Assembly: GCA_964451305.1 (NCBI GenBank) | Contig: CAYVHV010000012.1 | Coordinates: 8,353-72,352, forward strand | Source of the DNA: an uncultured Acidimicrobiales bacterium | Lineage (GTDB): Bacteria; Actinomycetota; Acidimicrobiia; Acidimicrobiales; SHLQ01 | DNA: 64,000 nucleotides | Direction of reading: 5' to 3' | In this document: positions 8,157-46,306 of the stretch, piece by piece | How positions within the stretch are numbered: the first letter of the stretch is position 1 | How the letters are laid out: every line of letters starts with the position of its first letter | Program-made: the position numbers and the translations under genes | The notes under the pieces: generated by a model | Database searches by the model: none | Seen by the model: the letters and a program-made list of their open reading frames with translations, nothing else | What the model was told of the DNA's origin: nothing

Positions 8157-8169
8157 ACAACCGGCCTCA

Positions 8170-8204
8170 CGTGTGGCATGCGATATTGCCACACGCTGAT
8201 TTTC
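8170..8204 (+). terminator. Hairpin / partial terminator (attenuator) between the binding-protein gene and the ABC ATPase
   Basis: Perfect 9-bp stem cgtgtggca (8170-8178) / tgccacacg (8187-8195), then ctgatttt. The U-tract is weak, so probably partial termination. Confidence 0.5.
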
Positions 8205-8302
8205 GAGACCGGGCTCTCCCATTTCTCTCCTTCGGGAGCGATCGGGTAGGGTCCGGTCTCGGTCGTTTTACGCGGAGGGTTTGAAAGCGATATGACCAGA
8301 AC

Positions 8303-13025: not shown

Positions 13026-13049
13026 GACCGCAACTCCTAGCGTAGGAGC

Positions 13050-15131
13050 GTGACTCACTCGGACTCCTCCCACGACACGCCCAACGAACCCGACCCACAT
13101 CTCTGGCTCGAAGAAGTCGAAGGCGATGATGCCCTCGCCTGGGTTCGAGAACAAAACGAGCGAACCCTCGCCGAGCTCCAAGCGAACCCACGATATGCAG
13201 GTTTCGAGGCCGCCGCCCTCGAGGTGCTGACCTCCGACGATCGCATCCCCTACGGCACGATCCGCGACGGTTGGCTCTACAACTTCTGGCAGGACGATGA
13301 GCACGTCCGCGGCCTGTGGCGACGCACTCCGCTCGAGAGCTTCCGCACCGATGACCCCGATTGGGATGTACTGCTCGACGTCGATGCTCTGGCAGAGGCA
13401 GAGCAGTCGAATCATGTATTCAAGGGCGCCAATGTGTTTCGGCGTCCGGGCGCTGACAACTACAAGTGCATGATCTCACTGTCCGATGGCGGCAAGGACG
13501 CGATCACCCAACGAGAGTTCGACATGAAGGAGCGAACCTTCGTCGACGACGGCTTCATCACTCCTGAGGCAAAGCAGGGAGCCGACTGGCTCGATGACGA
13601 CACGTTACTCATCGCCACCGATTGGGCTGACGAAGATGCCCCAACCGTGACCGACTCCGGCTACCCCTTCGTCGTCAAACGGTGGGAGCGGGGAACACCG
13701 CTCGCAGAAGCGGTCGAAGTTTTGCGGGGCACGCCGAGTGACGTTGGAGTCTTCCCGTTCACGATCGAACTCGAAGACCGCACCCTGATCTCGGGAGCTC
13801 AGCAAGCCGACACATTCTTCACCACGACCTATTGGCTGTTCACAGACTCAGGTCCGGTGCAGTTTCCAATTCCGCCGAAGTCAACACCGAACGGCATCTC
13901 CCACGGCCGACTATTACTTTCGCTCGAACAGGACTGGCAGCCAGGTGACGTCGCCTTTGAAACCGGTGACCTCGTCGCCTTCGAGATCCAACCCTTTCTC
14001 GATACGCACGAGTTAGGGCCGGTCGAGCTCGTCTTTCGACCAACAGTCACACAGGCGGTCAACGGTATCGCTGTCGCCGCGGGTGGAACGCTGCTCGCAA
14101 TCACCGAGAACGTCGTCGGCCAAGTGCTCCGCCTCGAGCCCGATGACTCGGGATGGAAGACGACACCAATCGACCTTCCTGGATCCGGAGATGTGGGAAT
14201 TACATTTGCTGATCGAGACGAAGATCTCGTGCTGATCAACTATGAGGATTTCCTCACGCCGACATCGTTGCTCGCGCTGAATTCGACCACAAATGAGATC
14301 GATTCGCTCAAGAGCGTCCCGCCTCGCTTCGATGCCGACGGACTCGTGGTTGAGCAGCTCATGGCCACCTCGACCGACGGCACGAAGATTCCGCACTTCA
14401 TTGTTCGGCGACAAGACGTAGCGTTCGACGGATCAACACCGACGCTGTTGTACGGATATGGCGGTTTCCAGGTGCCACTCAACCCGTCGTATAGCGGGAC
14501 GATTGGCCGCAACTGGCTTGAACAGGGCGGCGCATTTGTTATGGCCAACATTCGTGGTGGTGGCGAGTTTGGTCCGGCGTGGCATCAAGCTGGACTCAAG
14601 ACCCATCGCCAACGCGTCTACGACGACTTCATTTCTGTTGCGGAGTCGTTGGTGACATCGGGCCTTACCTCACCCGATCACCTCGGCATTATGGGCGGAT
14701 CGAACGGTGGCCTCCTGATGGGCGTCATGTTGAATCAACGGCCCGACCTTTGGAACGCCGTCGTCATTCAGGTTCCCCTGCTCGACATGCTCCGCTATCA
14801 CCTATTGCTCGCTGGCGCCTCATGGGTCGACGAGTACGGATCTCCAGATGTCCCTGAAGAGCGGGCGTTCCTCGAGACGATCTCGCCGTATCAGAACTTC
14901 GATGACGCACTCTCGTACCCGACCCCGCTGTTCGTTACCTCGACAAAGGACGATCGGGTCCACCCGGGTCACGCGAGAAAGCTGGCGAAAAAGTTCGAGG
15001 ATGCCGGACTTTCGTTCTGGTACTACGAGAACATCGATGGCGGACACTCCGCTGCTGCGAACCAGACCGAAGCAGCGAAACGAACCGCGCTGGAGTACAC
15101 GTACCTCATGGAACAGCTCACGACGGACTAG
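13050..15131 (+). CDS. Prolyl oligopeptidase family (S9A) serine peptidase
   Basis: ORF 13050..15131(+). N-terminal beta-propeller region, then GIMGGSNGGLLMG (GxSxGG nucleophile elbow), ...DDRVHPGHARK... and ...IDGGHSAAAN. The GTG start is uncertain. Confidence 0.85.
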   Translation: MTHSDSSHDTPNEPDPHLWLEEVEGDDALAWVREQNERTLAELQANPRYAGFEAAALEVLTSDDRIPYGTIRDGWLYNFWQDDEHVRGLWRRTPLESFRTDDPDWDVLLDVDALAEAEQSNHVFKGANVFRRPGADNYKCMISLSDGGKDAITQREFDMKERTFVDDGFITPEAKQGADWLDDDTLLIATDWADEDAPTVTDSGYPFVVKRWERGTPLAEAVEVLRGTPSDVGVFPFTIELEDRTLISGAQQADTFFTTTYWLFTDSGPVQFPIPPKSTPNGISHGRLLLSLEQDWQPGDVAFETGDLVAFEIQPFLDTHELGPVELVFRPTVTQAVNGIAVAAGGTLLAITENVVGQVLRLEPDDSGWKTTPIDLPGSGDVGITFADRDEDLVLINYEDFLTPTSLLALNSTTNEIDSLKSVPPRFDADGLVVEQLMATSTDGTKIPHFIVRRQDVAFDGSTPTLLYGYGGFQVPLNPSYSGTIGRNWLEQGGAFVMANIRGGGEFGPAWHQAGLKTHRQRVYDDFISVAESLVTSGLTSPDHLGIMGGSNGGLLMGVMLNQRPDLWNAVVIQVPLLDMLRYHLLLAGASWVDEYGSPDVPEERAFLETISPYQNFDDALSYPTPLFVTSTKDDRVHPGHARKLAKKFEDAGLSFWYYENIDGGHSAAANQTEAAKRTALEYTYLMEQLTTD

Positions 15132-30685: not shown

Positions 30686-31945
30686 ATGAACTTTGACCTA
30701 TCGGCAATCGAGCTCCGGGTGATGTGTGCGTTGGCGGAAAAAGAGTCGACGACACCGGATCAGTATCCGCTGAGCACGAACGCCCTTCGCTCGGCGTGCA
30801 ATCAAAAGACGAGCCGCGATCCAATCACCGATGTCTCCGAAGCCGACATCGAATCAACCATCTTGTCGTTACGAGAGCGCGGTCTCGTTCGCAGCCTGAA
30901 ACCGACAGGTTCGCGGAGTTGGAAACATCGCCAAACCCTGCCCGAAGTCCTTCCGCTCACCGACGGCGAGTTGGCGCTGGTGACCGTGCTTGGGTTGCGC
31001 GGTCCGCAAACTCCTGGTGAACTCCGCCAGCGCACCGAGCGCATTTCCTCCTTCGAATCGGTCGAAGAATTAGAGGGCACACTCCAGGGTCTCGCGAACC
31101 GGGACAACCCTGTCGTAGAGAACCTCGGACGCGAGCCCGGCCAAAGCCAAGACCGCTGGATGCATCGTCTAAGCAGCGACACCCAAAGTCCTCAGCAGGG
31201 TCGCCAGCGCGTGATGGCAGCGGAGTTCGCTGCACTGCACGAGTCGGGATTCTTTGCGCTCCCCAACCCGTGGGACCTCATGTCGGCCAAAGCCATGGAG
31301 GCTGCCGGTGCCAAAGCGGTCGCGACGAGTAGCGCTGCGTTAGCCGCAGTTCTCGGCAAGGATGACTATGGGATCGAGCGCTCCGAGCTGGTCGACCATG
31401 TCGCTCAACTCGCGGAACACCTCTCCATCCCGGTACACGTCGATAGCGAACAGCTCTTCCCGAACGACCCCGGTGGTATTGCCGAGACGGTTCGACTGCT
31501 CGCAGGCGCGGGAGCGGCGGGGGTCTCTATTGAAGACTTTGATCCCGCAACCGAATCGATCATCGATCGGTCAGCGGCCATCGAGGCCGTCACCGAAGCT
31601 GTCGACGCGTGTCGTCAGCATCATCTCGTGCTCACCGCGCGCCATGAGAGTCACCTCTATGGTCCTGCCTCGCTCGACGAAACCATCGAGTGTTTATCGG
31701 CATATGCCGACGCCGGCGCGGACTGTGTGTACGCCCCAGGCCTCACCGACACGGACGAGATCCAACGGCTGGTTGAAAACGTTGGGGCGCCGGTCAACGT
31801 GCTGGCGTTACCCGACGCTCCAGAAAGCGAGTTCCTCGAGTTGATTGGCGTTCGCCGAGCATCCACGGGATCGCTGCTGTTCCGAAACGTCGAACGAACT
31901 ATGGTGGCGGCGATAACCAACTTCCTCGGAAACGGATCACTATGA
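30686..31945 (+). CDS. Fusion protein: N-terminal YceH/DUF480 winged-helix domain plus C-terminal isocitrate lyase/PEP mutase family domain
   Basis: ORF 30686..31945(+). Residues 1-165 align with my recollection of E. coli YceH (LSAIELRVMCALAEKESTTPDQYPLSTNALRSACNQKTSRDP...LRGPQTPGELRQRTERI...REPGQSQDRWMHRL). The rest is ...FFALPNPWDLMSAKAMEAAGAKAVATSSAA...VHVDSE...AGVSIED, which is ICL/PEPM-like. Confidence 0.75.
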   Translation: MNFDLSAIELRVMCALAEKESTTPDQYPLSTNALRSACNQKTSRDPITDVSEADIESTILSLRERGLVRSLKPTGSRSWKHRQTLPEVLPLTDGELALVTVLGLRGPQTPGELRQRTERISSFESVEELEGTLQGLANRDNPVVENLGREPGQSQDRWMHRLSSDTQSPQQGRQRVMAAEFAALHESGFFALPNPWDLMSAKAMEAAGAKAVATSSAALAAVLGKDDYGIERSELVDHVAQLAEHLSIPVHVDSEQLFPNDPGGIAETVRLLAGAGAAGVSIEDFDPATESIIDRSAAIEAVTEAVDACRQHHLVLTARHESHLYGPASLDETIECLSAYADAGADCVYAPGLTDTDEIQRLVENVGAPVNVLALPDAPESEFLELIGVRRASTGSLLFRNVERTMVAAITNFLGNGSL

Positions 31946-32653: not shown

Positions 32654-33247
32654 ATGACTTTCTCTTTCGAACCACAACTGATCAAACAGGACTCGGCGGT
32701 TCCCCTCAGAATGATGACCGGCGGCTGGATAGCTGGCGCTGCGATCATCTTGCTCATCGGACCGGTAGCAAACCGGCTCATTGCATTCATGGGAATCTCC
32801 TTGATCGCCGGGGGCTTGATCGCGCTTCACCTGCGTGGCACTCGCATGTGGCGGATGGTCCTCGGCGCGAGCGCTGGGGCTGTCGCTGCGTGGCTCGGCT
32901 TTCGTTTCGCATTCTCCGATCGACTACTCCCAGCGACCAGCGACCCGCTCGAGCTGGCAAATACCGATCTGCTCTTCGCCGTCGCCCTCGGTCTTTGTGT
33001 CCTTTCGATTGGTCTCGGCGGAGTGCTCGAGGCGGTCCGCGCACAGGGAACGCCGGGCTCATCTCCCGTTCCGGTCAAGATCTTCCTCATCGTCGTCGGC
33101 CTATTTATTACCGCGGCGATTGCGAGCGGCGCTGGGGTCTCTATGGGAATCACCCTCCTGCTCGCCATCGGTGCTGCTGCTGGACTGAGCGCTATGGCCT
33201 TCCTCCGAAGAGAACGTCCGGCGAGCGACTTCGTCCCACAACCCTGA
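32654..33247 (+). CDS. Hypothetical polytopic membrane protein
   Basis: ORF 32654..33247(+). About five hydrophobic segments (WIAGAAIILLIGPV..., FMGISLIAGGLIAL..., LLFAVALGLCVLSIGLGGV..., IFLIVVGLFITAAIA..., ITLLLAIGAAAGL). Confidence 0.6.
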   Translation: MTFSFEPQLIKQDSAVPLRMMTGGWIAGAAIILLIGPVANRLIAFMGISLIAGGLIALHLRGTRMWRMVLGASAGAVAAWLGFRFAFSDRLLPATSDPLELANTDLLFAVALGLCVLSIGLGGVLEAVRAQGTPGSSPVPVKIFLIVVGLFITAAIASGAGVSMGITLLLAIGAAAGLSAMAFLRRERPASDFVPQP

Positions 33248-33263: not shown

Positions 33264-34433
33264 GTGCGCGTACTCATCATCTCCAACGACGTCATCTCCG
33301 GCTTCGGGGTCCCCGTTGCGGCGCCTGGTCTACGGGCCATGGGCTTGGCCGCTGGTCTGACCGCTCACGGCCACGATGTATCGACATCGGTCCCGAGCGA
33401 CCTGCTCGCGCTCGTTTTCGGTGACGAGATCCCTCCAGCGCCCGACGGCGTCGACATCGTGTCTCCTCCCGATTTGATGGCTCACATAGAGCAGATCGGC
33501 GCCGACACCGTCGTATTTATCAACTCAAATTTGTCGCCACACCTGCACCCAACGCCAGGCGTCACGTTCGTCTACGACCTCTTTGCTCCGAAGTTGCTCG
33601 AGGGTCTAGCGAGCACGACCGGTGGGCGTCCGTTCGCTGGTGCGGCAGCGGAGAAGGAACGGGCACTTGCGCTCGCCGACCATGTGTGGGTGAATGGCCG
33701 GCGCAAGATGGGCTATGCGCTCGGTTGGTTACTGCGTGACGAGGTCGACCGGATCCGTACAGAGATCTTCGCCAAGCCTTCGCTTCGTGACCGCGACGTG
33801 GCGAACATGATCACCTTGGTCGAGATGCCGGTGTCGCTCCCCGAAACGGTCGAGGTTTCCACCGTCACGACCACCGAATCGCCAGACCCGGTGCGCCTCG
33901 GCCTTGCCGGATACGCACAAGCATGGAGCACGCTGTCCGAGGTCGCTCTTGGCCATCGGCTGATGATCGACGCTGGACATGCACTTCACGCCCTCACGCC
34001 ACAACACTGGGCGGGAAATCCCGATGATGCGCCGCGCCAAGCACTCCCTCCCGAAACGATTCTCCACGACGGACCATTGCCGTTCGATGAGTTCGCCCGC
34101 TGGGTGCAATCGATGGATGCGATGGTCGATCTCTTCGAACCCAGCGCAGAACGCGCCTTTGCCATGATCACGCGAAGCGCTGTAGCTCTTCGGCTCGGAG
34201 TGCCGCTTATCCATGCGGTCGATTCGGAGATCTCCGACGTAATCGAGTTCTACGACGCCGGCTGGGTTCTCGATCCTCACGATCACGATCGCTGGAACCA
34301 GATCGCCGTCGAGGTAGCAGATCCATCGATCCTCACTCGAAAGCAGCAGGGCGCTCGCCGAGTTTCACTCGAACGGTTTGCTCCTCACGCAGCCCTCGCC
34401 GAAGCGTCTGCTCGGCTGCAACACGCGACGTAA
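33264..34433 (+). CDS. Glycosyltransferase, GT-B fold (GT4-like, divergent)
   Basis: ORF 33264..34433(+). MRVLIISNDVISGFGVPVAAPGLRAMGLAAGLTAHGHDV is the typical GT4 N-terminus, with a divergent C-terminus ...ERAFAMITRSAVALRLGVPLI. GTG start. Confidence 0.6.
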   Translation: MRVLIISNDVISGFGVPVAAPGLRAMGLAAGLTAHGHDVSTSVPSDLLALVFGDEIPPAPDGVDIVSPPDLMAHIEQIGADTVVFINSNLSPHLHPTPGVTFVYDLFAPKLLEGLASTTGGRPFAGAAAEKERALALADHVWVNGRRKMGYALGWLLRDEVDRIRTEIFAKPSLRDRDVANMITLVEMPVSLPETVEVSTVTTTESPDPVRLGLAGYAQAWSTLSEVALGHRLMIDAGHALHALTPQHWAGNPDDAPRQALPPETILHDGPLPFDEFARWVQSMDAMVDLFEPSAERAFAMITRSAVALRLGVPLIHAVDSEISDVIEFYDAGWVLDPHDHDRWNQIAVEVADPSILTRKQQGARRVSLERFAPHAALAEASARLQHAT

Positions 34434-34444
34434 GGAGCGGCACC

Positions 34445-35518
34445 ATGTCAGAAACCGCCCCGACGAATCTGAGCGTGCTCGTTCCATTCTGGGGACTCGC
34501 TGGCGGGGTCATCAAGATCCTCGACTATGCGGCCCACGGAGTAGACCTCGGATTGGCGGTCACCGTCTGGGCTCCTCCACTTCCCGAAGCGGATCATCCA
34601 ATACATCAACTACCGGTCGCTCGACGTCTGATCGATGACCCTGCGGTGGATATCGCCCTCCTCGATGAACTCGACCTTCGAGACCGGGCAGGTGTCGGCC
34701 ACGTCGCCCTCTTTACCGAACCCACACATCATCGCCTGATCGAGCGAGCGATCGATCGACCTCTCGGCGCAACGCTGTGCCACCTGGTCCAAGGCACTCG
34801 ACATGCAAACCCGCTCTGGCAAGACGGCGTGAACTATCGGCTGTTACACCGACCGATGACCCGGATCGCCGTCACCCCCCAAGTCTTTGATGCGATCTCT
34901 CCGCTGGTCAACCAACGCTTCTCGCTCACCACGATCGTCGAGGGTCACGCTGCGGAGTACTTCAGCGGACGTCCCCCTCGCGACACGCTCGAAACACAGA
35001 CAGCTCGACCGTTGCGGGTTCTCTACACCACATGGAAATCTGACCTCGGCGACCGCGTTGCTGAGCTACTGGCCAACGACGAACGCTTCGCATTTATCGC
35101 AGTCCGCTCAGAAACCTCATGGCCGGCGTTGAGAAATCGGTACCACGGCGCCGACGTTCTCCTCTGCGCTCCTGGCCCCGAAGAGGGCTTCTACCTCCCT
35201 GGGCTTGAGGCAATGGCGGCCGAGGTCGCTGTGGTCTCTGCTGTCGTCGGCGGCAACGCCACCTATCTACATGACGGGGAGAATGCGTTGGTGGTTGGCT
35301 ATGACGACGCGGAGCAACATCGCGCAGCGCTCGTTCGCTTGGCCGAAAACCCGTCCTTGCGTCAGACGCTCGTAGCGACCGGCCGAGAGACAATTGCCCG
35401 CCATTCCCTTGTCCGAGAACGCGCCGATTTCAAAAGCGTCCTCGCAAACACACAACGCTCCGAACCAGCGCAGAACGGCCAACTAGCCTACGAAGCGAAC
35501 GACCAGGAGGCCCCATGA
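34445..35518 (+). CDS. Glycosyltransferase family 4 (GT-B)
   Basis: ORF 34445..35518(+). ...LLCAPGPEEGFYLPGLEAMAAEVAVVSAVVGGNATYLHDGENALVV contains the E-x7-E nucleotide-sugar motif. Confidence 0.75.
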   Translation: MSETAPTNLSVLVPFWGLAGGVIKILDYAAHGVDLGLAVTVWAPPLPEADHPIHQLPVARRLIDDPAVDIALLDELDLRDRAGVGHVALFTEPTHHRLIERAIDRPLGATLCHLVQGTRHANPLWQDGVNYRLLHRPMTRIAVTPQVFDAISPLVNQRFSLTTIVEGHAAEYFSGRPPRDTLETQTARPLRVLYTTWKSDLGDRVAELLANDERFAFIAVRSETSWPALRNRYHGADVLLCAPGPEEGFYLPGLEAMAAEVAVVSAVVGGNATYLHDGENALVVGYDDAEQHRAALVRLAENPSLRQTLVATGRETIARHSLVRERADFKSVLANTQRSEPAQNGQLAYEANDQEAP

Positions 35519-35817
35519 GCAGCACATCGCCAAATATCGGACTCACGCCAGCGACACCCATCACCTCCGATGAGAAGGCCGAACTCGACTTCCTGCGCTA
35601 TGAGGCGGCATACCTGCAACGCCGACTCGACGTTGTCGAAGACGAACTTGTTCACACCATCATCGAGCGCGACACCATTCGTCATGAGCGAAACCTAATG
35701 GCTCAGGACTTCTCGTGGACCCTCCAACGCCTCGCCCGCTCGCCAGCCGGTGTCGTGTTGTCACGCACCGCTGGATTCCGGCGCATGCTCGAAACGTGGG
35801 GACATGCCGCCGACTGA
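35515..35817 (+). CDS. Hypothetical small protein with predicted coiled coil
   Basis: ORF 35515..35817(+). ATGA overlap with the preceding GT. EKAELDFLRYEAAYLQRRLDVVEDELVHTIIERDTIRHE is heptad-like. Confidence 0.5.
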   Translation: MSSTSPNIGLTPATPITSDEKAELDFLRYEAAYLQRRLDVVEDELVHTIIERDTIRHERNLMAQDFSWTLQRLARSPAGVVLSRTAGFRRMLETWGHAAD

Positions 35818-36505
35818 CCGTCCATCGATAGAGGTCGTGCCAACGGCCGATCCAGAGGCACCCCCGCCCTTGACCCGTTGCTGCTATCGCGGGCGGCTCC
35901 GTCTTTCGGGGCCGGCGTCCGACGGCGAAGCCACCTTCGACGACTTGGTGATGCCGTCGGAACTCAACGACGCAATGTCATCGGCCGACATCGTGTCGAT
36001 CCTCGACCCGATGTCGTTCCCGTGGAACTCGATCGATCTCGATGTAAACGCGGTCGTGATCATCGACGCGTCGATGTGCAGCGATGACGACCTCGATGCT
36101 CTGCTGCCCGTGCTCGGTTCGCTGACCGCCGCAGACACGGTCATCGATCCGACCGACTCTCCCTCGCGTTCGTTGAGCCGAGCGTTGGGAACTCGCACTC
36201 ATCAGCCGTCGGTCGATGAGTGGCCGGCAGTCCAGCAGGAGAAGCACCTCCTGCGAGCCGATCGTCGAATCACCGATCGAATCGCCCGAGAGATCGGCGA
36301 CCACGCCATTGTCCAGCGCGTCGAGATCGACGAGCTCGTGGCGTCAGGAATTCGGATCGATACTTACCTATCTGAGGCCGCTGCTGCGCTGGATAGCACG
36401 GCGGTTGGCCTCTGGGGAGTCCGCACCGAGCCAGGCGCCCCGTTGCATCATGGATGGGCAATCTTTGAACCAACAGGTCACACGAACCAATGCATCCAGT
36501 ACTGA
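35804..36505 (+). CDS. Hypothetical protein
   Basis: ORF 35750..36505(+), with start moved to ATG 35804 (MPPTDRPS), overlapping the previous gene by 14 nt. No motif recognised. Confidence 0.45.
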   Translation: MPPTDRPSIEVVPTADPEAPPPLTRCCYRGRLRLSGPASDGEATFDDLVMPSELNDAMSSADIVSILDPMSFPWNSIDLDVNAVVIIDASMCSDDDLDALLPVLGSLTAADTVIDPTDSPSRSLSRALGTRTHQPSVDEWPAVQQEKHLLRADRRITDRIAREIGDHAIVQRVEIDELVASGIRIDTYLSEAAAALDSTAVGLWGVRTEPGAPLHHGWAIFEPTGHTNQCIQY

Positions 36506-37254
36506 TCGCCGGGGTCCACCGAAGCGGGACATCGTGGGTTGCGCGAACGCTCCACGAGGCTGGAATGAACCTCGGAGACGACCTCCTCGGCGACCAACCA
36601 GGCAATCCATACGGTCATTTCGAAGACAACCGCGTCGTTGCATTGCACGATGCCGCGCTCGAAGAACAAGACTTGACATGGAAGAGCACGACTCCGGTCC
36701 AACATCGTTCAGAGTCCGACCTACGTGTTGGTATCGATGCGATCGTACGTGAGCGAAGCAATACGGCGACACCGTGGGCCATAAAGGACCCTCGGCTGTG
36801 CTTGTTTCTTCCGGAATGGCTTGCCGTTGCACCCCAGAGTCGCCTGATCGTCGTCTTTCGCAGACCCGACGAGGTTGTCGAGTCGCTGCGCCGACGACAC
36901 GCCCGGCGATGGGTCCACACTCGCCATGTTGATCCAAGCGATCTTGCCTTTTGGGAACAGCCCGACCTTGGACTGCACCTGTGGGTTCACTACAACGAAC
37001 AACTGCTCATCAGCGCGAGATCAATGGATCCAGGTCACGTGCACGTCATCGAATGGAACACCACCGGCGCGACTTCGAGGCTGGTCTCATCGATCGCCGA
37101 GAAATGGAATCTCGAACTTACGCCGACGACGATTTCCCTAGATCCCACGCTCGGGAAACGTTCCACACGCCCGCTCGAAGTCCATGATCCACGTTTGATC
37201 ACCCGAGCGGAAGCAGCGTGGGCTGGTCTTCAGGAACTGCGAAGCGCTCCATAG
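36490..37254 (+). CDS. Sulfotransferase family protein
   Basis: ORF 36490..37254(+). VLIAGVHRSGTSWVARTL is 5'-PSB-loop-like and VVFRRPDEVVESLRRR is 3'-PB-like (R-x7-S). Overlaps the previous gene by 16 nt. Confidence 0.65.
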   Translation: MHPVLIAGVHRSGTSWVARTLHEAGMNLGDDLLGDQPGNPYGHFEDNRVVALHDAALEEQDLTWKSTTPVQHRSESDLRVGIDAIVRERSNTATPWAIKDPRLCLFLPEWLAVAPQSRLIVVFRRPDEVVESLRRRHARRWVHTRHVDPSDLAFWEQPDLGLHLWVHYNEQLLISARSMDPGHVHVIEWNTTGATSRLVSSIAEKWNLELTPTTISLDPTLGKRSTRPLEVHDPRLITRAEAAWAGLQELRSAP

Positions 37255-37329: not shown

Positions 37330-37845
37330 ATGGACATGATTGGAGATCGTCGCGGGAAATCACGTCGCAAGATCGTTCTTCTCGATCTCGAAAATATGCT
37401 CTTTGGCGATCACAAGGGCAACGACAACGGCCAGCCACGCGACCGCTCAGCGGAAATTCTTGAACTCGCTCAAGCTCGCCGACCCGGCGACACCATCATC
37501 GTTGGATGCAACCCCCACCTCGTCTTCCTCGCTCACGACCTTTTCCCTGGATCCAAGATCGTGACGGGCAAAGGCAAGGACGGCGCCGACCTCGCATTGA
37601 TCGATGCCCTCGATCTCTCCCGAGCAATCGACCGGTATGACGAACTCTGTATCGTCTCGGGCGATCACCTCTTCTGCGAAGTGGCCCACCCCGCGCACTA
37701 CGCAGGCCTCACGGTGCGCATCGTTGCTCCGCACGCAGGCCTGAGCACTGCACTTCGGGTATACGCCGACACTGCAGTCTTCCTTCCCGAAGAATTTGAT
37801 CCCGAAGCCGACGACGAGCTCGACGCCGGCCCACTCGCCGCCTGA
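37330..37845 (+). CDS. NYN/LabA-like (PIN-fold) domain protein
   Basis: ORF 37330..37845(+). IVLLDLENML..., ...GKGKDGADLALIDAL... and ...LCIVSGDHLF...GLTVRIV match the NYN domain acidic-residue pattern. Confidence 0.7.
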   Translation: MDMIGDRRGKSRRKIVLLDLENMLFGDHKGNDNGQPRDRSAEILELAQARRPGDTIIVGCNPHLVFLAHDLFPGSKIVTGKGKDGADLALIDALDLSRAIDRYDELCIVSGDHLFCEVAHPAHYAGLTVRIVAPHAGLSTALRVYADTAVFLPEEFDPEADDELDAGPLAA

Positions 37846-37920: not shown

Positions 37921-38286
37921 ATGGAACGGCGCCTATTTCATCGTGAGAGCATTGCAATGAATGGCGACCTTTCATGGGTAACCAAAGGGCGCCTCGGCCG
38001 CAAGCAAACGCAGCGTTCGTATGTGAGAACCCTCAACCTGTCCCTCGATGGCGCCCGTATCGAGCTGAAGGGCCACTACCCGTTCCTCGTCGACGCGGTC
38101 GCTCGAATACAACTTGGGATTCGTTACTGCGACGTGCGCATACTCGACGTCGTACACACAGGCGAGCGCACGATCTTGCGTATCTTCTTCATCTCACCAG
38201 ACCCAGACTTCGTGTCGGTGATAGAGGATCAGCTCCCGTCACTCACCGCAGATCGTGAGCTCCATGAACGCAAGTGGATGGCCTAA
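37921..38286 (+). CDS. Stand-alone PilZ domain protein (putative c-di-GMP receptor)
   Basis: ORF 37921..38286(+). RRLFHR at residues 3-8 (RRxxxR) and NLSLDG at 39-44 ((D/N)xSxxG), with canonical ~30-residue spacing. Confidence 0.7.
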   Translation: MERRLFHRESIAMNGDLSWVTKGRLGRKQTQRSYVRTLNLSLDGARIELKGHYPFLVDAVARIQLGIRYCDVRILDVVHTGERTILRIFFISPDPDFVSVIEDQLPSLTADRELHERKWMA

Positions 38287-39041: not shown

Positions 39042-40025
39042 ATGACGCCCCTCGAAGTTCTTCCGCGAGAAGGAGCCGGTGCCGAAGTACTCGGGGTTGA
39101 TGTGTCCGCCATGACCGTCGGCGAATGGAACCAGATCGAAGCGGCCTTCGCCGCGTTCGGTCTCCTGGTATTCCGAGACCAGATTCTGACCGAGCGCGAC
39201 CACGTCGAATTCGCGCAACGTTGGGGGGCTCCCGTTCCCCCTGACCGTCGGGCGCATCCGACCGAGCCTGAAATCGCCGTTCGGGATGCAACGTCACCCT
39301 CGGAACCAGGGAGCCAGAGCACACAAGGGGTCTGGTACGCCGATCGAAGCTATGCCTTGCGCCCACCACTCGGATCGGTCGAGATCGCTCGAGAGATTCC
39401 AGCCGGTGGGGCAACGACCATCTTTGCCGACACGCACGCCGCATTCGACACGTTGAGCAGCGGCACGCAGCGGGCGTTGGAAGCGCTCCGTGCGGTCCAT
39501 ACACACCCGGTACCCGGTGGTGATGTTGAGGAATCTCGACATCCAATTGTGATCCACCACCCGGTGAGTGGTCGAAAGACGCTCTTCGTCAATCCAACAT
39601 TCACCACGAGCGTCGAAGACATGGACGAACGAGAAGGCCTTGGACTGCTCAACCAGTTGTACGACCATTGCCAGCAGCCCGAGTTTCTGACCACGGTCGA
39701 ATGGGAACTTGGAATGGTCGTCATATGGGACAGTCGAGCGGTCTGGGAATTCTCTCCTCGTGCAACCGACCAGCCGACCATGCACCGGGTCACGATCTCT
39801 GGCACCGAGCTACGACCCGCAATCGCCCCTGCAAAGAAGGACCCGACGCTCACCCAACGCGCTGGAGCGACCCTCGCCGGAGGCATTCTGACAGCAGCGA
39901 TGACCGGCATTGCCGAGGTGATCGACCCCGAACGGGTCAAACACGACATCGAAATTGTGAGTGAGGCACCCGAGCCCGATGACCTCCCCGATTTCGACTT
40001 TGGTGAGCTCCCCCCACTGGACTAA
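39042..40025 (+). CDS. TauD/TfdA-family protein with non-canonical metal-site residues
   Basis: ORF 38664..40025(+) trimmed to ATG 39042 (after AGAGGG). Collinear with my recollection of E. coli TauD. WYAD replaces WHTD, IWDSRAVWEF replaces IWDNRVTQHY, and MHRVTISG matches MHRATILG. Confidence 0.75.
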   Translation: MTPLEVLPREGAGAEVLGVDVSAMTVGEWNQIEAAFAAFGLLVFRDQILTERDHVEFAQRWGAPVPPDRRAHPTEPEIAVRDATSPSEPGSQSTQGVWYADRSYALRPPLGSVEIAREIPAGGATTIFADTHAAFDTLSSGTQRALEALRAVHTHPVPGGDVEESRHPIVIHHPVSGRKTLFVNPTFTTSVEDMDEREGLGLLNQLYDHCQQPEFLTTVEWELGMVVIWDSRAVWEFSPRATDQPTMHRVTISGTELRPAIAPAKKDPTLTQRAGATLAGGILTAAMTGIAEVIDPERVKHDIEIVSEAPEPDDLPDFDFGELPPLD

Positions 40026-40029
40026 CCGG

Positions 40030-40905
40030 CTAGCCGACGCGCCCGACCGGCGATCCCCAACGCTGACGAAGTGCATCGAGGATCGCTGCTTTACGAGCGC
40101 TCGCCGACCAGTAGGGCGTTCGACGCTTCGGATCGATTGCACCGGCGAGCAATTGCCAGATCATCAACGCGAACCGCATAGCGGCCTTGCGTCGACCGAA
40201 TTGTCGAGACATCAAGAGAATCGTGTTGCGTTCCATCAAATACTCGACGGTTGGAGACGGCGTGCTCACCATGGGGTTCTCGACCATTGCGCCGCGAACC
40301 AATCCCACGTCGAAGCCCGCCTTCTTTGCGCGCAAACCTAGGTCGGCTTCCTCGCAATACGCGAAGTAGCGCTCATCGAACAGCCCGATGGTCGACAAGC
40401 ACGTACGGCTTGCCATCATCATCGTTCCATGTGGGTAGTCGACCTCTTCAAAGCCAACGTCACCGGCGGCAGGAACGAGAATCGGGCCAAAGACATGGTC
40501 GACGAATGGGCGCAGTCCATCACCAACATCGGCACTCAACAACCCCGCGTCCGGATGCTCGTCTGCAGCGCGAAGCATCATCGAGAGCGTGTCGGGAGCC
40601 GGCAGCGCGTCGTGCGGGGCAACAACGGACCACTCGCCTCCGGATTCGTCGCGTAACCATTGTTCCCAGCCGCGATTCGCAGCGGGTCCAAAGCCACTGT
40701 TGAAACCGACCTCGATTAGGGAGAGATCACGCTCTGAGATTGCGGCGAGACGTTCGTGTAGCTCCCGTTGGTTCTCCGCTGTCGAGCCGTTGTCGACGAT
40801 CACCACCCGAGCGACCTCGGGCAACGCCGAGAACCTTCGAGCGGTTTGAGCGCACGAGCGTGGTTGGTTCCAATGAATGAGGATGACCGTTACGGACGCC
40901 TGCAT
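40030..40905 (-). CDS. Glycosyltransferase family 2
   Basis: ORF 40030..40944(-). VTVILIHWNQP...RVVIVDNGSTAENQ...LSADVGDG... is the GT-A fold with a DxD-like region. Start taken at the internal ATG 40905. Confidence 0.75.
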   Translation of the reverse strand: MQASVTVILIHWNQPRSCAQTARRFSALPEVARVVIVDNGSTAENQRELHERLAAISERDLSLIEVGFNSGFGPAANRGWEQWLRDESGGEWSVVAPHDALPAPDTLSMMLRAADEHPDAGLLSADVGDGLRPFVDHVFGPILVPAAGDVGFEEVDYPHGTMMMASRTCLSTIGLFDERYFAYCEEADLGLRAKKAGFDVGLVRGAMVENPMVSTPSPTVEYLMERNTILLMSRQFGRRKAAMRFALMIWQLLAGAIDPKRRTPYWSASARKAAILDALRQRWGSPVGRVG

Positions 40906-40915
40906 CCTCTGGAAG

Positions 40916-41941
40916 CTACCGGATTGGTCGAAGCCCGGTAACAACGATCGACGTATCGAGATCTTTGAGTTGCTCGGTGAGCCGAAGTATGACGTCGTTG
41001 CCGAGATCGCTCACGCCCATGTCGGCGGCGACCTGCATGTCATTGCGAGCCGACAGCTGATCGAGCTCGGAGCCATGTGGAGTGAACGAGAGAACATCGA
41101 GTTCGACCTCGCCGTCTTGACCAATCGCTCCGGCTAACCCTGCGAGGAGCGGAACGAAGACTTGGATCTCGCCCGAGTCGTCGTGAAAGGTGCCAACGCA
41201 GCCGCGAATTGGTCCGCCGCAAACAGTATTTGAGTAGTAGCCCCGAAGCGTGGCACGAACACCCGGGTTCGCTTGACGATCGGTCTTGAACTCGTCGACG
41301 GTGTGGCTGGGTCCGCGTAGGTTGAAATGGTCGGGAGGAAGCCCGTCAGCTGATAACCAATGCGCCGGAAAGCGGCTTCGATCGACCGATTCGATACGAC
41401 GAGGCGCCGAAGCTGACACGAACTCGCGAACCTCTCGGGTTGCTAGCGCCTCGAGATGGGTTCGGTGAAGACCGCCGCGGGCGGTATCGACGAGGTCGCG
41501 TTCGAAGGCCAATGCGAGCAGATCGAAGAGTCCGGACATGCCAAATGCCCACAGGTCGACGTGGCTGTCGTTGTCCTCACCGCGAAAGATCCGTCCACCG
41601 GGGTGCGATGCCGATGCGAGTTCGATCCAGAGACGGGTGTTCGCCCAATCCGCTATCGGCAAGAGGACCGCTGGCGCGATCGGACGTTCCCTCTCACGCT
41701 GTTCGAGCAGCGCGTGGATTGGGATGAACCCCTCGAGGCATGGCCACTGGACCGTCGAAGGATCCCACGTATTCCAGAAAGAACGCAGTTCCATCGGCAG
41801 GCGCAAGGGGGCGATTGCCTCCTCGATCTCACCGATGTGCCGACGGTGCTTGGAACGACGCGACCAAGGCCGTATCGATACGCCGTATGGTCGGCCTGAG
41901 AAATTAAGGCGTTCGATCGCCTCGTCTACCAAGATCATCAC
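40916..41941 (-). CDS. Hypothetical protein with SMI1/KNR4 (SUKH)-like N-terminal region
   Basis: ORF 40916..41941(-). ...IEEAIAPLRLPMELRSFWNTWD...LLPIADWANTRLWIEL... resembles the SUKH pattern. The C-terminal ~170 aa are unassigned. Confidence 0.4.
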   Translation of the reverse strand: MMILVDEAIERLNFSGRPYGVSIRPWSRRSKHRRHIGEIEEAIAPLRLPMELRSFWNTWDPSTVQWPCLEGFIPIHALLEQRERERPIAPAVLLPIADWANTRLWIELASASHPGGRIFRGEDNDSHVDLWAFGMSGLFDLLALAFERDLVDTARGGLHRTHLEALATREVREFVSASAPRRIESVDRSRFPAHWLSADGLPPDHFNLRGPSHTVDEFKTDRQANPGVRATLRGYYSNTVCGGPIRGCVGTFHDDSGEIQVFVPLLAGLAGAIGQDGEVELDVLSFTPHGSELDQLSARNDMQVAADMGVSDLGNDVILRLTEQLKDLDTSIVVTGLRPIR

Positions 41942-42406: not shown

Positions 42407-42584
42407 TCCTCCACGCTCTCACCCTTGGGCGACCACCGCTAGGGTCGCCCGGCCCACCGATTCGTGGCGTCTGAACTTGCATTCGACCGCGAGTACAACC
42501 TGCGGTACCCTCCCATAAGGCGGTCGAGGAAATGTACTTCCATGACCATGGAATTCATTCGTCACAATACGAGGTCAAACACTT

Positions 42585-44057
42585 ATGAAGGTTCAATCCC
42601 CCCGGCGAGGGAAGAAACTCGCCTCCGCCCTGCTTACTGCCGGTGTTGTCGGCGCGACGCTGGTCGCTCCCACGTCCGCAGTTGGCGCTCAGACAGCAAC
42701 CTCGTGCGGAACCGCTCCGGCTGGGTACAACGTCATCGAATCCAATGCCCGCATCATTCGCGGCACGACCGGACCAGACTTCATCTGTGCTGGCCCGGGT
42801 AACAACATCATTCGCGCAATGGGCCAAGACGACATCATCTTTGGTGGCGACGGCATCGACGTGATCTTTGGCGGATTCGGCAATGACACCATCGATGGTG
42901 GCGCAGGCGACGACCGAATCACCGCAGGTTCCGGCCTCGACACCGTGAACGCTGGGCCCGGCAATGACACTGTTCTTGCAGGCAATGGCCCCGACGTCGT
43001 CGATGGCGGCGCAGGCGCCGACCAATTGACCGGCGGCAACGGCAACGACACGCTCTCCGGTGGTGTCGGCAACGACCGACTCATCGGCAACATGGGCCTC
43101 GACACCTTGATTGGAAACGACGGCCGGGACACGCTTCAGGGCGGCATCGGCAACGACCGGATCATCGGCGGAAACGGCCATGACAATCTCAACGGTGGCG
43201 ACAGCGACGATGTCCTCTTCGGCGGCAACGGCAACGACCTCCTTCAGGGTGGTAACGGCGAAGATCAGCTCACCGGCGGCAACGGCAACGACGATCTCCG
43301 AGGACAGGGCAACCCCGACATCCTTCGGGGAAACAACGGTGACGACATCTTGAACGGTGGCAACGGCCTCAACACCGCTGTCGGCGGAGATGGCGCCGAC
43401 GTGTGCTTTAATGCAGCCGGCGACGGAACGAGCTGTGAGTCCCTCGACGGTGTGGTACTCGCTGAACCTTCTCAGGTCATCATCGCAACCTTCCCTAACG
43501 AAATCGGGGGCTTGGCGACGATCACTGGTCAGAACTGGCGAGTGAACCCATCGTTCCCACTCGAAGCAGACATTCGTGTCACCATCCCTGGCCTTCAGCC
43601 AGGCTCGGCAACGATCGTCGACGGTAGCTGGGCAGTTACAGCGCCATCGTCGTTCGCATTCGGCACGGACATCACCGCCACCAACCTGAGCACGACCCAG
43701 GTGCTCGATCAGGCGCTTGAGAGCTTCGACTACAACCCACGGACCCGGGATCTCACGGTCACGGGCGAGACGGATGCGACCGTCCGAGTGCTTGTCTACA
43801 ACAACGCTGACGAGCTCGTGTTTGTCGAGCAGATCACCTTCGATGCGGCTGGAAACGGTGAGGCGAACTTCACCGAGGTTGCAAACATTGGGTCGATCGA
43901 TATCTCCCGACAGGATTCTGACGGCGACATTGCGGTGTACCTCGATGTGCACCGCGATCCGGTAGATCTGACCGCTCCAGCTGCACCACAAGATGATGCG
44001 GCCGACGACGACGAAGAGATCGAAGATACCCCCGAGGACATCCCCGACGAGGTATAG
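42585..44057 (+). CDS. Secreted calcium-binding RTX-type (GGxGxD nonapeptide) repeat protein
   Basis: ORF 42585..44057(+). Signal peptide MKVQSPRRGKKLASALLTAGVVGATLVAPTSAVGA, then roughly 20 consecutive nonapeptides (GGNGNDTLS GGVGNDRLI ...). These are followed by ~200 aa of non-repeat sequence and an acidic tail DDAADDDEEIEDTPEDIPDEV. Confidence 0.85.
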   Translation: MKVQSPRRGKKLASALLTAGVVGATLVAPTSAVGAQTATSCGTAPAGYNVIESNARIIRGTTGPDFICAGPGNNIIRAMGQDDIIFGGDGIDVIFGGFGNDTIDGGAGDDRITAGSGLDTVNAGPGNDTVLAGNGPDVVDGGAGADQLTGGNGNDTLSGGVGNDRLIGNMGLDTLIGNDGRDTLQGGIGNDRIIGGNGHDNLNGGDSDDVLFGGNGNDLLQGGNGEDQLTGGNGNDDLRGQGNPDILRGNNGDDILNGGNGLNTAVGGDGADVCFNAAGDGTSCESLDGVVLAEPSQVIIATFPNEIGGLATITGQNWRVNPSFPLEADIRVTIPGLQPGSATIVDGSWAVTAPSSFAFGTDITATNLSTTQVLDQALESFDYNPRTRDLTVTGETDATVRVLVYNNADELVFVEQITFDAAGNGEANFTEVANIGSIDISRQDSDGDIAVYLDVHRDPVDLTAPAAPQDDAADDDEEIEDTPEDIPDEV

Positions 44058-44078
44058 CCCGACGCCTACTATGGCGCT

Positions 44079-44993
44079 GTGACGTCGCCACAGCCGAAAC
44101 GACTCATCTGGGTTGTTCCGGCTGTGGCTTTCGTCATTTTTGGGTTCGCTGGGCCTGCTACACAGGTTGACGGTCTTGCCCAAGAGGCGACAAAGATCGT
44201 TGTCGAAGCAACTGCGACATCGATCTCAAAGGAGACTGCGATAGCCCCGGCCGTCCCAGAGCCTCAGGTCCTTGGCGAAGCACAGATTGCTGGACCCACG
44301 ACGACACAACCCGCTCCCGTCACCCCGACAGCCCCTCCGGCTCCAACCCGACCCGATCGAGCAGAGTTGACCCCAGCCCAGCTCGCCGATCGCAGGCTTG
44401 ATACCTTCGATGCGCTGGACCCTCCAATCGACGACGTCTTTGTCTCGACGGTCGAATCGCCGGCCCCTCTGGATGTCATCGCACGAAGCACATGGAACCC
44501 GGAGTGCCCTGTTAGCCCGGCCGACCTGTCGTATGCACAAGTGTCCTTCTACGGCTTCGACGGCCGCTTCCATACCGGTGAGCTGTTGCTCCACTCCGAG
44601 TACGCAGACGATATTGTCGGGATCTTTGCTCGACTGCACGAGATGCGATTCCCGATTGAAGAGATGCGCGTGGTGTCACTAGATGACTTCGCAAACCCGA
44701 TCGCCACCGAGAACAACACGACGGTCTTCACCTGTCGACGATCGGTGTCTTCGTCACGTTGGTCGCGCCACGCCCACGGCGATGCCATCGATATCAACCC
44801 ATTCCACAATCCGTACGTATCGAACAGCCGTGTCATTCCTGAACTGGCAACCGCCTACGTCGACCGCGATCGTGAAGTCCCTGGTCTCATCAACGCCGAA
44901 GTGCGGGCGATGTTCAGCGAGATCGGCTGGGGTTGGGGCGGCAACTGGAATTCCGTCAAAGACTGGATGCACTTCAGCGCAACGGGCAGGTAA
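44079..44993 (+). CDS. M15-family (VanY/LD-carboxypeptidase-like) peptidoglycan peptidase, membrane-anchored
   Basis: ORF 44079..44993(+). N-terminal TM LIWVVPAVAFVIFGFAG, then ...SRHAHGDAIDINP... (H-x6-D) and ...DWMHFSATG (distal His). GTG start. Confidence 0.75.
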   Translation: MTSPQPKRLIWVVPAVAFVIFGFAGPATQVDGLAQEATKIVVEATATSISKETAIAPAVPEPQVLGEAQIAGPTTTQPAPVTPTAPPAPTRPDRAELTPAQLADRRLDTFDALDPPIDDVFVSTVESPAPLDVIARSTWNPECPVSPADLSYAQVSFYGFDGRFHTGELLLHSEYADDIVGIFARLHEMRFPIEEMRVVSLDDFANPIATENNTTVFTCRRSVSSSRWSRHAHGDAIDINPFHNPYVSNSRVIPELATAYVDRDREVPGLINAEVRAMFSEIGWGWGGNWNSVKDWMHFSATGR

Positions 44994-45017: not shown

Positions 45018-46169
45018 CTAGCTCGCGTCTATCGCCGGTTCATCTCCATCGGCCATGATCCACTCGGCGAGCTTCTCCAAGCGGTGAACGCCCAGGTACG
45101 CGAGCACCAGCCCAACGACTGCAAAGACGAGCAACACGATGTCGGTTCGGAGTTGATCGAGGAAAATCGCGGTGGTCGCCACCTCCAGGAGCGCCATGAA
45201 GGCAACGAACCTGATCACCGTTCTCTCACTGACCTTCGCGGCAACCCACGCGCCCAAGGGCGCTCCCCAGACCACGATCGGTGCAGCGGCGAGCCAAATG
45301 CCAAAGAGGTCGAACTGTACGGCCGGCTCGGGCCCGAAGGTCGCTCCGGCGACCGCAACGACCTCGCTGCCATCTGGGTTGAGGCCAATATCGAGCTGAC
45401 CATGCCAGAATCCGAGCACGAACAACCCGACGAGCGAGACGGTTGCCATCGCAATGATGCTCGTCGGGATGGCGACCTTTGGCGTGACTCCGGCTACCAG
45501 CACGATGAACACGAAGAGGAAGACATCGGTTCCTGAACCGGTCAGCGCCGAAAACAGTCCACCGACAAAGGCGAAGACGGACATGACGAGCACGGAACGA
45601 AAACCCCAGTCGGGCACCTCGTCATAGCGCGAGGTCCGGTTCGAGCAGATGCGAACGATGACCGCCACCGCAAAGATTGCGATCGTGAACGCTACCTTGA
45701 CGAACGATGGCTCGATGCGCGGAGACCAAAACGGTGTATTCGGGTCGCCGAGAGCAACCAGGCCAACGCCGAACCCGACGATGCCACCAGCCACTCCTAA
45801 CCCGAGCGCCTTCCAATCAATTTTGCGTCCGGACAAGATGATCGATGCTGACGCCATGACCATCCCGGTGGCCTGAATCACGATGGAGAACGTGCGCGCG
45901 ACCGGAGCCGAAATTCCGATCACCTTCGTAAAGACTGGAAATGCCACCGCGCCACCGCCTTGTGGGGTGGATCCTGCAACGAAGCTGCCGACGACCATCG
46001 TTGCCGAAGAACGCCAATTGTCTAGAACCCTGTCGAAGTGTCCAAAGGTAAACACAAAGACGAACCACCCAATGGTGAAGGCTGCGGGCAGACCCCAGAC
46101 AGCCGCTCGCCGAATGACGCCCAGTTCTTTGTCCACTTCGTGTTTCTGGGTTGCCTCGGCCGTATCCAT
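45018..46169 (-). CDS. TauE/SafE (TSUP, DUF81) family anion exporter-like membrane protein
   Basis: ORF 45018..46235(-). Polytopic, with internally repeated halves rich in G/A/V (..VGSFVAGSTPQGGGAVAFPV.., ..GGLFSALTGSGTDVFLF..). Start moved to ATG 46169. Confidence 0.6.
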   Translation of the reverse strand: MDTAEATQKHEVDKELGVIRRAAVWGLPAAFTIGWFVFVFTFGHFDRVLDNWRSSATMVVGSFVAGSTPQGGGAVAFPVFTKVIGISAPVARTFSIVIQATGMVMASASIILSGRKIDWKALGLGVAGGIVGFGVGLVALGDPNTPFWSPRIEPSFVKVAFTIAIFAVAVIVRICSNRTSRYDEVPDWGFRSVLVMSVFAFVGGLFSALTGSGTDVFLFVFIVLVAGVTPKVAIPTSIIAMATVSLVGLFVLGFWHGQLDIGLNPDGSEVVAVAGATFGPEPAVQFDLFGIWLAAAPIVVWGAPLGAWVAAKVSERTVIRFVAFMALLEVATTAIFLDQLRTDIVLLVFAVVGLVLAYLGVHRLEKLAEWIMADGDEPAIDAS

Positions 46170-46306
46170 CACGTCGTGAACCCACCGTCGGCAATAGTTG
46201 TTCCGATTCTGTTCATCTCCTGTGTCGGACTGCACTGCGGATCGAAAGGGAAGAAGAACGAATGATGGGTTTGGAAGTCGCTCTTTGGAACTACTGTTTC
46301 GTGGAT

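Follow-up and report, generated by a model that had tools for sequence, protein, structure and literature searches.

A recurring five-gene module of marine Acidimicrobiales pairs GT-B-fold proteins with a sulfotransferase and may build a sulfated glycan

We analysed a 64,000-nucleotide stretch of contig CAYVHV010000012.1 (the window) from an uncultured marine Acidimicrobiales-type actinobacterium of ~60% GC, and describe here five consecutive plus-strand genes, g1 to g5, that form a recurring module and may together build a sulfated glycan. g1 (33264–34433) starts with GTG and encodes a soluble protein of 389 aa predicted to adopt the GT-B fold; g2 (34445–35518) encodes a soluble 357-aa protein predicted to be a retaining GT-B glycosyltransferase of family 4 (GT4); g3 (35515–35817) an acidic helical protein of 100 aa; g4 (35804–36505) a 233-aa member of a small uncharacterised family; and g5 (36490–37254) a soluble protein of 254 aa, predicted to be a sulfotransferase of the type that uses 3'-phosphoadenosine 5'-phosphosulfate (PAPS). 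Hydropathy analysis found transmembrane-like segments in none of the five. The genes are tightly packed: an 11-nt gap with AGGAG inside it separates g1 from g2, g2 and g3 share the 4-nt overlap ATGA, and the overlaps of g3 with g4 and of g4 with g5 are 14 and 16 nt. An earlier reading of this DNA from its letters alone (the sequence-only reading) had described five same-strand genes with these junctions and taken them for one unit; all of its coordinates and overlaps were reproduced exactly, and the functional unit is backed by the recurrence of the gene set in rearranged orders and in three fusions (see below). The GC content by codon position agrees with the five frames, positions 1 and 3 (GC1, GC3) each lying well above position 2 (GC2), and on 23 near-identical metagenome contigs, the longest of 322 kb, public gene callers arrived at these five genes as well. 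For g1, the start at 33264 is backed by the N-terminus MRVLVISNDV..., which is conserved across 31 orthologues. No source annotation names any of the five proteins. A scan for promoter-like sites found none and terminator-like matches occurred at chance level and inside coding sequence, both scans being uninformative for an actinobacterium of 60% GC.

Two of the five products are recognisable enzymes. g2 scores above the cut-offs of two Pfam models (PF13692, 40.2 bits against 27; PF00534, 38.4 bits against 26.4). Its N-terminal half has no Pfam match, the NCBIfam GT4 models cover the C-domain only, and the weak sequence matches in the PDB (PimA, ManT, GlgM and MshA) likewise fall in the C-domain. 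The E-x7-E motif of g2, EEGFYLPGLEAMA (E247-GFYLPGL-E255), is invariant in 11 orthologues; the second Glu of this motif binds the donor ribose in GT4 enzymes (PMC9883506). With both models above their cut-offs and the motif invariant, g2 is classed as a GT4 glycosyltransferase, which bears out its initial description as a canonical E-x7-E enzyme. g5 matches PF13469 (Sulfotransfer_3) with 33.9 bits (cut-off 27, E = 5e-8) over residues 3–189, the match spanning positions 1–192 of the 216 in the model, and no other sulfotransferase family in Pfam was significant. Its motifs H10-R-S-G-T-S15 and R124-x-P126-x5-S132, which we take to be the loop that binds the 5'-phosphosulfate and the motif that binds the 3'-phosphate of PAPS, are invariant in the 11 orthologues. 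At E <= 1e-5 we found 1230 homologues; most of the best 120 carry PF13469, and NCBI gives the name sulfotransferase to some of them. The profile match and the invariant motifs class g5 as a PAPS-type sulfotransferase, so that this call, too, passed a curated cut-off.

g1 is less typical. The window protein has no Pfam match; 11–12 of its 31 orthologues have weak matches to models of the GT4 N- and C-domains (the best with E-values of 8e-7 to 3.5e-4), and a g1 profile compared with PDB sequences gave marginal matches to GT4 C-domains only (E = 0.05 at best). The AlphaFold2 (AF2) model made from the 31 orthologues has a predicted local distance difference test score (pLDDT) of 91.7 and a predicted template-modelling score (pTM) of 0.92, and displays a GT-B fold of two Rossmann domains. 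Foldseek returned 432 PDB matches at E <= 0.001, the top-listed being GT-B enzymes with GT4 members first; the best of them, to MshA, GlgM, sucrose-phosphate synthase (SPS), BshA and WaaG, had E-values of ~1e-11, template-modelling (TM) scores of ~0.65 and 12–14% identity. ManT is among the fold and sequence matches of both g1 and g2. From the model we are confident that g1 has a GT-B fold with GT4 enzymes as its nearest relatives. About 60 residues are invariant among the orthologues, and the invariant basic residues of the N-domain are K110, K131, R133, K148 and R165. Of the earlier description of g1 as a divergent GT4-like enzyme, the fold stands; since g1 lacks the GT4 donor-binding motifs, we can only infer that it is a glycosyltransferase, and it may be either an atypical enzyme of this kind or a non-catalytic partner of g2. 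Recent paralogy of g1 and g2 was also considered and rejected, as BLASTP and hhalign found no significant similarity between them.

The two middle proteins, which had appeared motif-less, belong to no Pfam family. g3 has no family in NCBIfam or PADLOC either. Its residues 18–75 contain not a single proline or glycine, a conserved motif (RL..SP.GP.L.R..GF.R....W) lies at its C-terminus, and some of its orthologues match generic coiled-coil Pfam models; g3 is possibly a coiled-coil scaffold. The g4 family is rare, with 59 matches among 1.84 billion representative proteins, and none of 35 members has a significant Pfam match. The AF2 model of g4 (pLDDT 93) consists of a Rossmann-like N-domain (residues ~22–130), a long helix (137–163) and a C-terminal alpha+beta domain, and the N-domain carries the motif DDPLSFPW. 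The g4 sequence found nothing in the PDB, and Foldseek searches of the PDB and BFVD with the model gave no convincing neighbour (best 3k5p, TM 0.27). Residues 22–130 are homologous to the N-domain of fusion proteins that end in an S-adenosylmethionine (SAM)-dependent methyltransferase (hhalign probability 98.9%, E = 2.4e-17), and such fusions stand in for g4 in other lineages. A degenerate methyltransferase in the C-terminal half of g4 was rejected, because hhalign aligns the N-domain only.

To describe the relatives we use ST5 for the g5 sulfotransferase subfamily, g4N for the g4 N-domain, MT for SAM-methyltransferase, a double colon for a fusion and L-numbers for individual loci. The order g1-g2-g3-g4-g5 is retained in ~17 Acidimicrobiales species, in which g1 is 50–79% identical to the window protein and marine-clade g3 orthologues are found at E-values of 1e-27 to 1e-54. 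Synteny in this marine clade extends beyond the five genes, to those for M1 peptidase, Metallophos, DUF480-PEP mutase, DsbA, NYN and HhH-GPD proteins; since the whole neighbourhood is syntenic, conserved order there is by itself weak evidence for a functional unit. A metagenome scan with the g1 alignment gave 76 loci, mostly from soil and many cut by contig ends. Their synteny was read from open reading frame (ORF) and phmmer tables made with a crude GC3-based gene caller, which missed g1 in several loci and called opposite-strand shadow ORFs there; counted in this way, g1 was present in 57 loci, g4N-MT in 49, g2 in 48, ST5 in 44 and g3 in 40. The block ST5-g3-g4N::MT-g1-g2 occurs in ~40 of the 76, again mostly from soil, and the further orders g1-g4N::MT-g2 (L032) and g4N-g1-g2-ST (the context of P0143) were also seen. 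In the cultured Nocardioides marinquilinus (Propionibacteriales), the order is ST5-g3-g4N::MT-like-g1-g2 with four 4-nt overlaps, and the module sits between SMC/FtsY and amt-glnB-glnD at ~52.3–56.8 kb of contig BAABKG010000004.1 in assembly GCA_039543705.1. g3 occurs in Nocardioides and in L031 and L033 as well as in the metagenome loci, and its neighbour is always g4 or a g4N fusion; no fusion of g3 to a g4-family protein was found. Three types of fusion join components of the module: g1::g2, a 732-aa ORF of one species present in two assemblies that differ by 0.8%; g2::sulfotransferase, a 613-aa protein with a C-terminal Sulfotransfer_1/3 domain in L059 (1996–3837), L061 (3305–5146) and L067; and g4N::MT. 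Nothing was learned from the more distant g1 homologues, those of the Fulvimarina locus L028 and of the locus that surrounds P0084. Because the same components recur in other orders, in unrelated neighbourhoods and in three kinds of fusion, we conclude that the five genes are a genuine functional module and not mere neighbours. Co-occurrence across genomes, the check that had been proposed for the unit, is thus found in ~17 Acidimicrobiales species, ~40 metagenome loci and N. marinquilinus. Two loci, L013 (JBLIMK010000126.1) and L027 (CAXMRH010000207.1), were binned as Verrucomicrobiales and Chthoniobacterales; they have full Acidimicrobiales-type synteny and 56–60% g1 identity, and are for this reason probably mis-binned.

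The company that the module keeps differs between clades. In the soil clade it is adjoined by genes for a Wzt ATPase with a Wzt_C domain (PF14524) and for Wzm (ABC2_membrane), with the PF14524-bearing Wzt beside the module in L048, L049, L051 and L080. The soil clusters add 3–5 extra Sulfotransfer_1/3 genes and also hold an LCP ligase (PF03816), a polysaccharide pyruvyl transferase and glycosyltransferases of family 2 (GT2), and a polyprenyl-phosphate sugar-phosphate transferase (PF00953; WecA-like, initiating) is among the neighbours. Relatives also have enzymes of sugar-nucleotide metabolism, namely an NDP-sugar dehydrogenase (TIGR03026) and a GalE-like epimerase, and in some marine relatives a GalE-like epimerase, a protein resembling tetratricopeptide-repeat (TPR)/TOD1-MUCI70 proteins and a second sulfotransferase are inserted in the locus. 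Judged by its gene content, the soil-clade company carries the hallmarks of glycopolymer assembly that depends on an ABC transporter and is followed by attachment to the cell wall.

Our best reading of these results, which we hold at about even strength, is that the module assembles and modifies a sulfated oligo- or polysaccharide in the cytoplasm; the product would probably be destined for the cell surface. In the order of events that we envisage, g2, as a retaining GT4 enzyme, would transfer a sugar from a nucleotide sugar, while g1, in a presumed physical complex with g2, would either add a second sugar or linkage or hold the acceptor. g5 would O-sulfate the chain made by g1 and g2 with PAPS as donor, and g3 and g4, without enzymatic activity of their own, may serve as scaffolds or adaptors through which the modifying enzyme is linked to the two transferase-like proteins. 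The chain would be built on the cytoplasmic face of the membrane, probably on a polyprenyl carrier, and exported by an ABC transporter, after which, in the relatives, the LCP ligase would attach it to the wall. In the organism studied here, the export genes would lie apart from the module.

Several results count against this proposal. No gene for an exporter, an LCP protein, an initiating transferase or PAPS synthesis lies near the module in the window, in the marine Acidimicrobiales loci or in N. marinquilinus, and in all of these the module is surrounded by housekeeping genes; the link to a polymer and its export is weakened because exporter company was seen in the soil clade only. Even there, the Wzt adjacent to the module in L063 has no carbohydrate-binding module (CBM), and cap-dependent export is therefore no strict companion of the module. 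Genes for PAPS synthesis do not occur anywhere in the precomputed Pfam annotation of the ~64-kb window, and g5 has no close solved relative, its best PDB sequence match being marginal (5tiz, E = 0.32). At the place of the GT4 donor-binding motif G-R-x4-K-G the g1 consensus reads G216-Y-A-Q-A-W-S, and hhalign places E247 and E255 of g2 against R297 and S305 of g1 (sequence E296-R297...R304-S305-A306-V307), an alignment of low confidence (probability 0.3%). Finally, the coiled coil first proposed for g3 was not confirmed on the window protein, on which a crude heptad test found no significant periodicity.

The reading from letters alone had favoured a different product: with no export, polymerase or lipid-carrier genes in the unit, a small acceptor seemed more fitting than a polysaccharide. 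That argument holds for the window and not for the module as a whole, and it is weakened by relatives in which the module is embedded with Wzm and Wzt (with Wzt_C), LCP, PF00953 and extra sulfotransferases; on gene content, a polymer appears at least as likely. A glycolipid, metabolite or compatible solute (for example a sulfated di-glycoside), decorated in the cytoplasm without polymerisation or dedicated export, would fit the marine and Nocardioides modules, which stand alone with no export or lipid-carrier genes within 10–30 kb. All five proteins are soluble, the best fold matches of g1 (MshA, GlgM, SPS and BshA) act on small anionic acceptors, the g1 N-domain has many invariant basic residues, and a sulfated solute would be conceivable in a marine habitat. 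However, a TM score of ~0.65 to GT4 enzymes reflects no more than the shared fold, two non-enzymatic subunits (g3 and g4) would be unusual in a solute pathway, the phosphatase or acyltransferase expected from known glycoside-solute or sulfolipid pathways is not present, and the exporter, LCP, PF00953 and multiple sulfotransferase genes of the soil clade suggest a polymer; we consider a small acceptor unlikely. Less probable again is a polysaccharide that stays inside the cell, like the methylmannose polysaccharide (MMP) and methylglucose lipopolysaccharide (MGLP) of mycobacteria, and that would carry sulfate in the marine clade and methyl plus sulfate in other clades. The MMP cluster, which also lacks export genes, is likewise compact and combines a single GT4 enzyme (ManT) with methyltransferases and a helper (PMC9883506); in addition, ManT is among the matches of g1 and g2, a SAM-methyltransferase belongs to the module in most lineages, and in two lineages the module stands alone. 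The likeness to ManT, however, goes no further than the generic GT4 fold, neither the MMP hydrolase nor MeT1 or MeT3 had a recognisable homologue, and the soil-clade exporter and LCP favour a surface product, which together make such a polysaccharide improbable.

A sharper form of our preferred explanation borrows from glycans exported by ABC transporters, which are polymerised in the cytoplasm by glycosyltransferase modules in complexes and often receive a cap from an enzyme linked to a coiled coil, the cap being read by the CBM of Wzt (PMC11231755; PMC3482155). WbdD is a coiled-coil protein that bears the terminating methyltransferase and kinase, the polymerase WbdA is a dual glycosyltransferase, and only capped chains are exported (PMC3482155; PMC11231755). 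In a split version of such a system, g1 and g2 would polymerise, and g3, g4 and g5 would add a terminal sulfate (a methyl group elsewhere), which would fix the length of the chain and be recognised, for export, by the C-domain of Wzt. The PF14524-bearing Wzt beside the module in the four soil loci named above would fit, as would the fact that the transferase pair always has beside it a modifying enzyme (methyltransferase, sulfotransferase or both) together with a helical or coiled-coil protein; a coiled-coil protein marks such systems, and their catalytic modules may be separate polypeptides (PMC11231755). On the other hand, g3 is short (~55 helical residues), is not fused to the modifying enzyme and gave no significant result in the heptad test, L063 has its Wzt without a CBM, the clusters also hold other candidate terminators (the pyruvyl transferase and additional sulfotransferases), and no exporter is linked to the module in the window. 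We regard this refinement as rather doubtful. As to the idea that the five genes are unrelated neighbours held together by clade-wide synteny, the conservation of the entire marine neighbourhood beyond the five genes speaks for it, but the same components occur in other orders and unrelated neighbourhoods, the start and stop codons overlap and three fusions are known. With the rearranged orders, the fusions and the Nocardioides set, it is effectively refuted, and we give it next to no credence.

Some flanking genes may belong to the same biology. A basic membrane protein of 197 aa with ~5–6 hydrophobic segments and no Pfam family is encoded at 32654–33247 (+) and ends 16 nt before g1. Marine Acidimicrobiales loci conserve its gene immediately before g1, although in L009, L017, L023 and L026 genes on the opposite strand have been inserted between the two; the soil and Nocardioides variants lack it. 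It is a possible sixth member of the module, confined to the marine clade, and might be co-transcribed with the five genes. Downstream, 2.8 kb past g5, a GT2 glycosyltransferase (PF00535, PF13641) is encoded at 40030–40905 (-), adjoining a gene for a conserved family-less protein of 341 aa (40916–41941, -). This GT2 is syntenic in close relatives, three soil clusters (L048, L049 and L051) have homologues of it adjoining Wzt (E = 1e-11 to 6e-19), and it possibly acts in the same pathway as the module, although the link is weak. A 75-nt gap separates g5 from a gene for an NYN-domain (LabA-like nuclease) protein (37330–37845, +), which is followed by one for a basic protein of 121 aa (37921–38286, +). 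Most marine Acidimicrobiales loci that reach past g5 keep both genes in synteny with the module; since the soil and Nocardioides variants have neither, the two are probably neighbours without a functional link to it. Anti-phage defence was considered on account of the NYN nuclease and rejected, since g1 to g5 match no PADLOC model; the NYN protein itself gave a marginal match (E = 0.0098).

Within 8 kb of the operon lie genes for a TauD-family dioxygenase (39042–40025, +) and a TauE-family (sulfite exporter-like) membrane protein (45018–46235, -), for which a link to the turnover of organosulfur compounds or sulfate esters is possible. Many marine relatives keep TauD close to the module (L010, L016, L019–L022 and L025). 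Upstream, a 419-aa protein combining DUF480 with a PEP-mutase/isocitrate-lyase-like domain (30686–31945, +) is conserved in the marine clade. On the other side of the module, a gene for a secreted RTX-type protein with HemolysinCabind repeats (42585–44057, +) precedes one for a Peptidase_M15_4 protein (44079–44993, +); a long overlapping antisense ORF (42555–44183) is probably spurious. L009, which is on the same contig as L024 and comes from an Acidimicrobiales metagenome-assembled genome, holds only the PEP_mutase part of the DUF480-PEP mutase protein, has an arylsulfatase-like protein of 661 aa (PF00884; 5941–7926, -) encoded divergently beside g1, and has a second Sulfotransfer_3 gene (12166–13095, +) after g5. 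In N. marinquilinus (L111), a protein of 987 aa with a Gly/Arg-rich tail and no precomputed Pfam match is encoded divergently upstream of the module (6916–9879, -).

Sulfated glycans are uncommon among bacteria, and in the literature we searched sulfated polysaccharides are reported mostly from cyanobacteria and a few marine Gram-negatives. The earlier remark that sulfated glycoconjugates are poorly described in Actinomycetota is fair, as sulfated polysaccharides in actinomycetes were still treated as unverified in 2026 (PMC13390465). The module offers a five-gene handle on such a glycan in marine Acidimicrobiales, in mostly soil contigs with LCP and in a cultured Nocardioides, and the full operon in a culturable strain makes its function directly testable. 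Taken together, the proposals above could describe a hitherto unrecognised route of Actinomycetota to an anionic wall glycopolymer that bears sulfate and no phosphate, in which g3 as spacer, g4N as adaptor and ST5 or the methyltransferase would cap the chain made by g1 and g2, with Wzt_C reading the cap. We consider this joint picture speculative and rather unlikely to be right in full; if it were, sulfate would add a new chemistry to those that terminate chains, new protein families would have to be set up for g1, g3 and g4, and where seawater and soil are poor in phosphorus the polymer could take over the function of teichoic acids. An anionic polymer based on sulfate would also matter for the phosphorus economy of the ocean.

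We found no paper on these genes, and compared the module with the nearest systems that have been described. Among ABC-transporter-dependent O-polysaccharide systems with chain termination, WbdA-WbdD-Wzm-Wzt of Escherichia coli O9a and Klebsiella pneumoniae O3 and the K. pneumoniae O4, O7 and O12 systems resemble it in cytoplasmic assembly by soluble or peripheral glycosyltransferase modules in a complex, although for our module the complex is only proposed. WbdA is a protein with two GT4 modules, and g1 and g2 are fused in one species. In both cases a modifying enzyme is accompanied by a helical or coiled-coil protein, a methyltransferase or kinase in the Wbd-type systems and a sulfotransferase and/or methyltransferase here. 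A Wzt with Wzt_C adjoins the module in soil relatives, while in the window none is linked to it. WbdD has no sequence homologue in the module, and g3 is a separate protein of 100 aa rather than a long ruler fused to an enzyme. The modification made by our module would be a sulfation, and the hosts are Actinomycetota with an LCP ligase, not bacteria with lipopolysaccharide; the literature searched holds no example of a chain terminated by sulfate.

A pair formed by an active GT4 enzyme and a divergent GT-B protein that lacks donor-binding residues and binds the acceptor is known from GtfA/GtfB-type glycosyltransferases, whose substrate is a serine-rich protein. By this description, g1, with neither G-R-x4-K-G nor E-x7-E and fused to g2 in one species, would resemble GtfB; no GtfB chain is among the best 50 Foldseek matches of g1, and its ~60 invariant residues fit a catalytic role too. 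The trehalose 2-sulfotransferase Stf0 belongs to a Pfam family different from PF13469. The mycobacterial sulfolipid-1 pathway in which it acts (Stf0, PapA1/2, Pks2 and MmpL8) shares with the module the PAPS-dependent sulfation of a sugar in the cytoplasm of Actinomycetota (cited in PMC8205485). Sulfolipid-1 synthesis depends on acyltransferases, a polyketide synthase and an MmpL transporter, whereas the annotation of the window lists no gene for any of these, and the pathway has no glycosyltransferases.

Glycosyltransferases are clustered with PF13469 or PF00685 sulfotransferases, as here, in the synechan cluster (xss) of Synechocystis PCC 6803 and in the predicted wps-1 cluster of Actinoplanes missouriensis (PMC8205485; PMC13390465). 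Both of these clusters are Wzx/Wzy-dependent, with a flippase, a polymerase and a polysaccharide copolymerase, whereas our module stands alone or is associated with an ABC transporter, and neither has proteins of the g1, g3 or g4 type. The MMP cluster (the GT4 enzyme ManT with MeT1, MeT3 and MmpH) is similar in that it is compact and actinobacterial, joins a GT4 enzyme to O-modifying transferases and to a helper that was at first unknown, and has no export genes (PMC9883506); it methylates only, its product is intracellular, it has no sulfotransferase, second GT-B protein, g3 or g4, and its homology to the module is limited to the GT4 fold. Beyond a GT4 enzyme and a PF13469-type sulfotransferase, the module has no components in common with the MMP, xss/wps-1, Wbd and Stf0 systems. 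What is new is a cluster for glycan assembly and sulfation, as its enzymes suggest, that comes with three unclassified protein families (g1, g3 and g4). Altogether, the module shares its logic with ABC-transporter-dependent O-polysaccharide systems, its chemistry with the clusters for sulfated exopolysaccharides, and its compactness and phylum with the MMP cluster.

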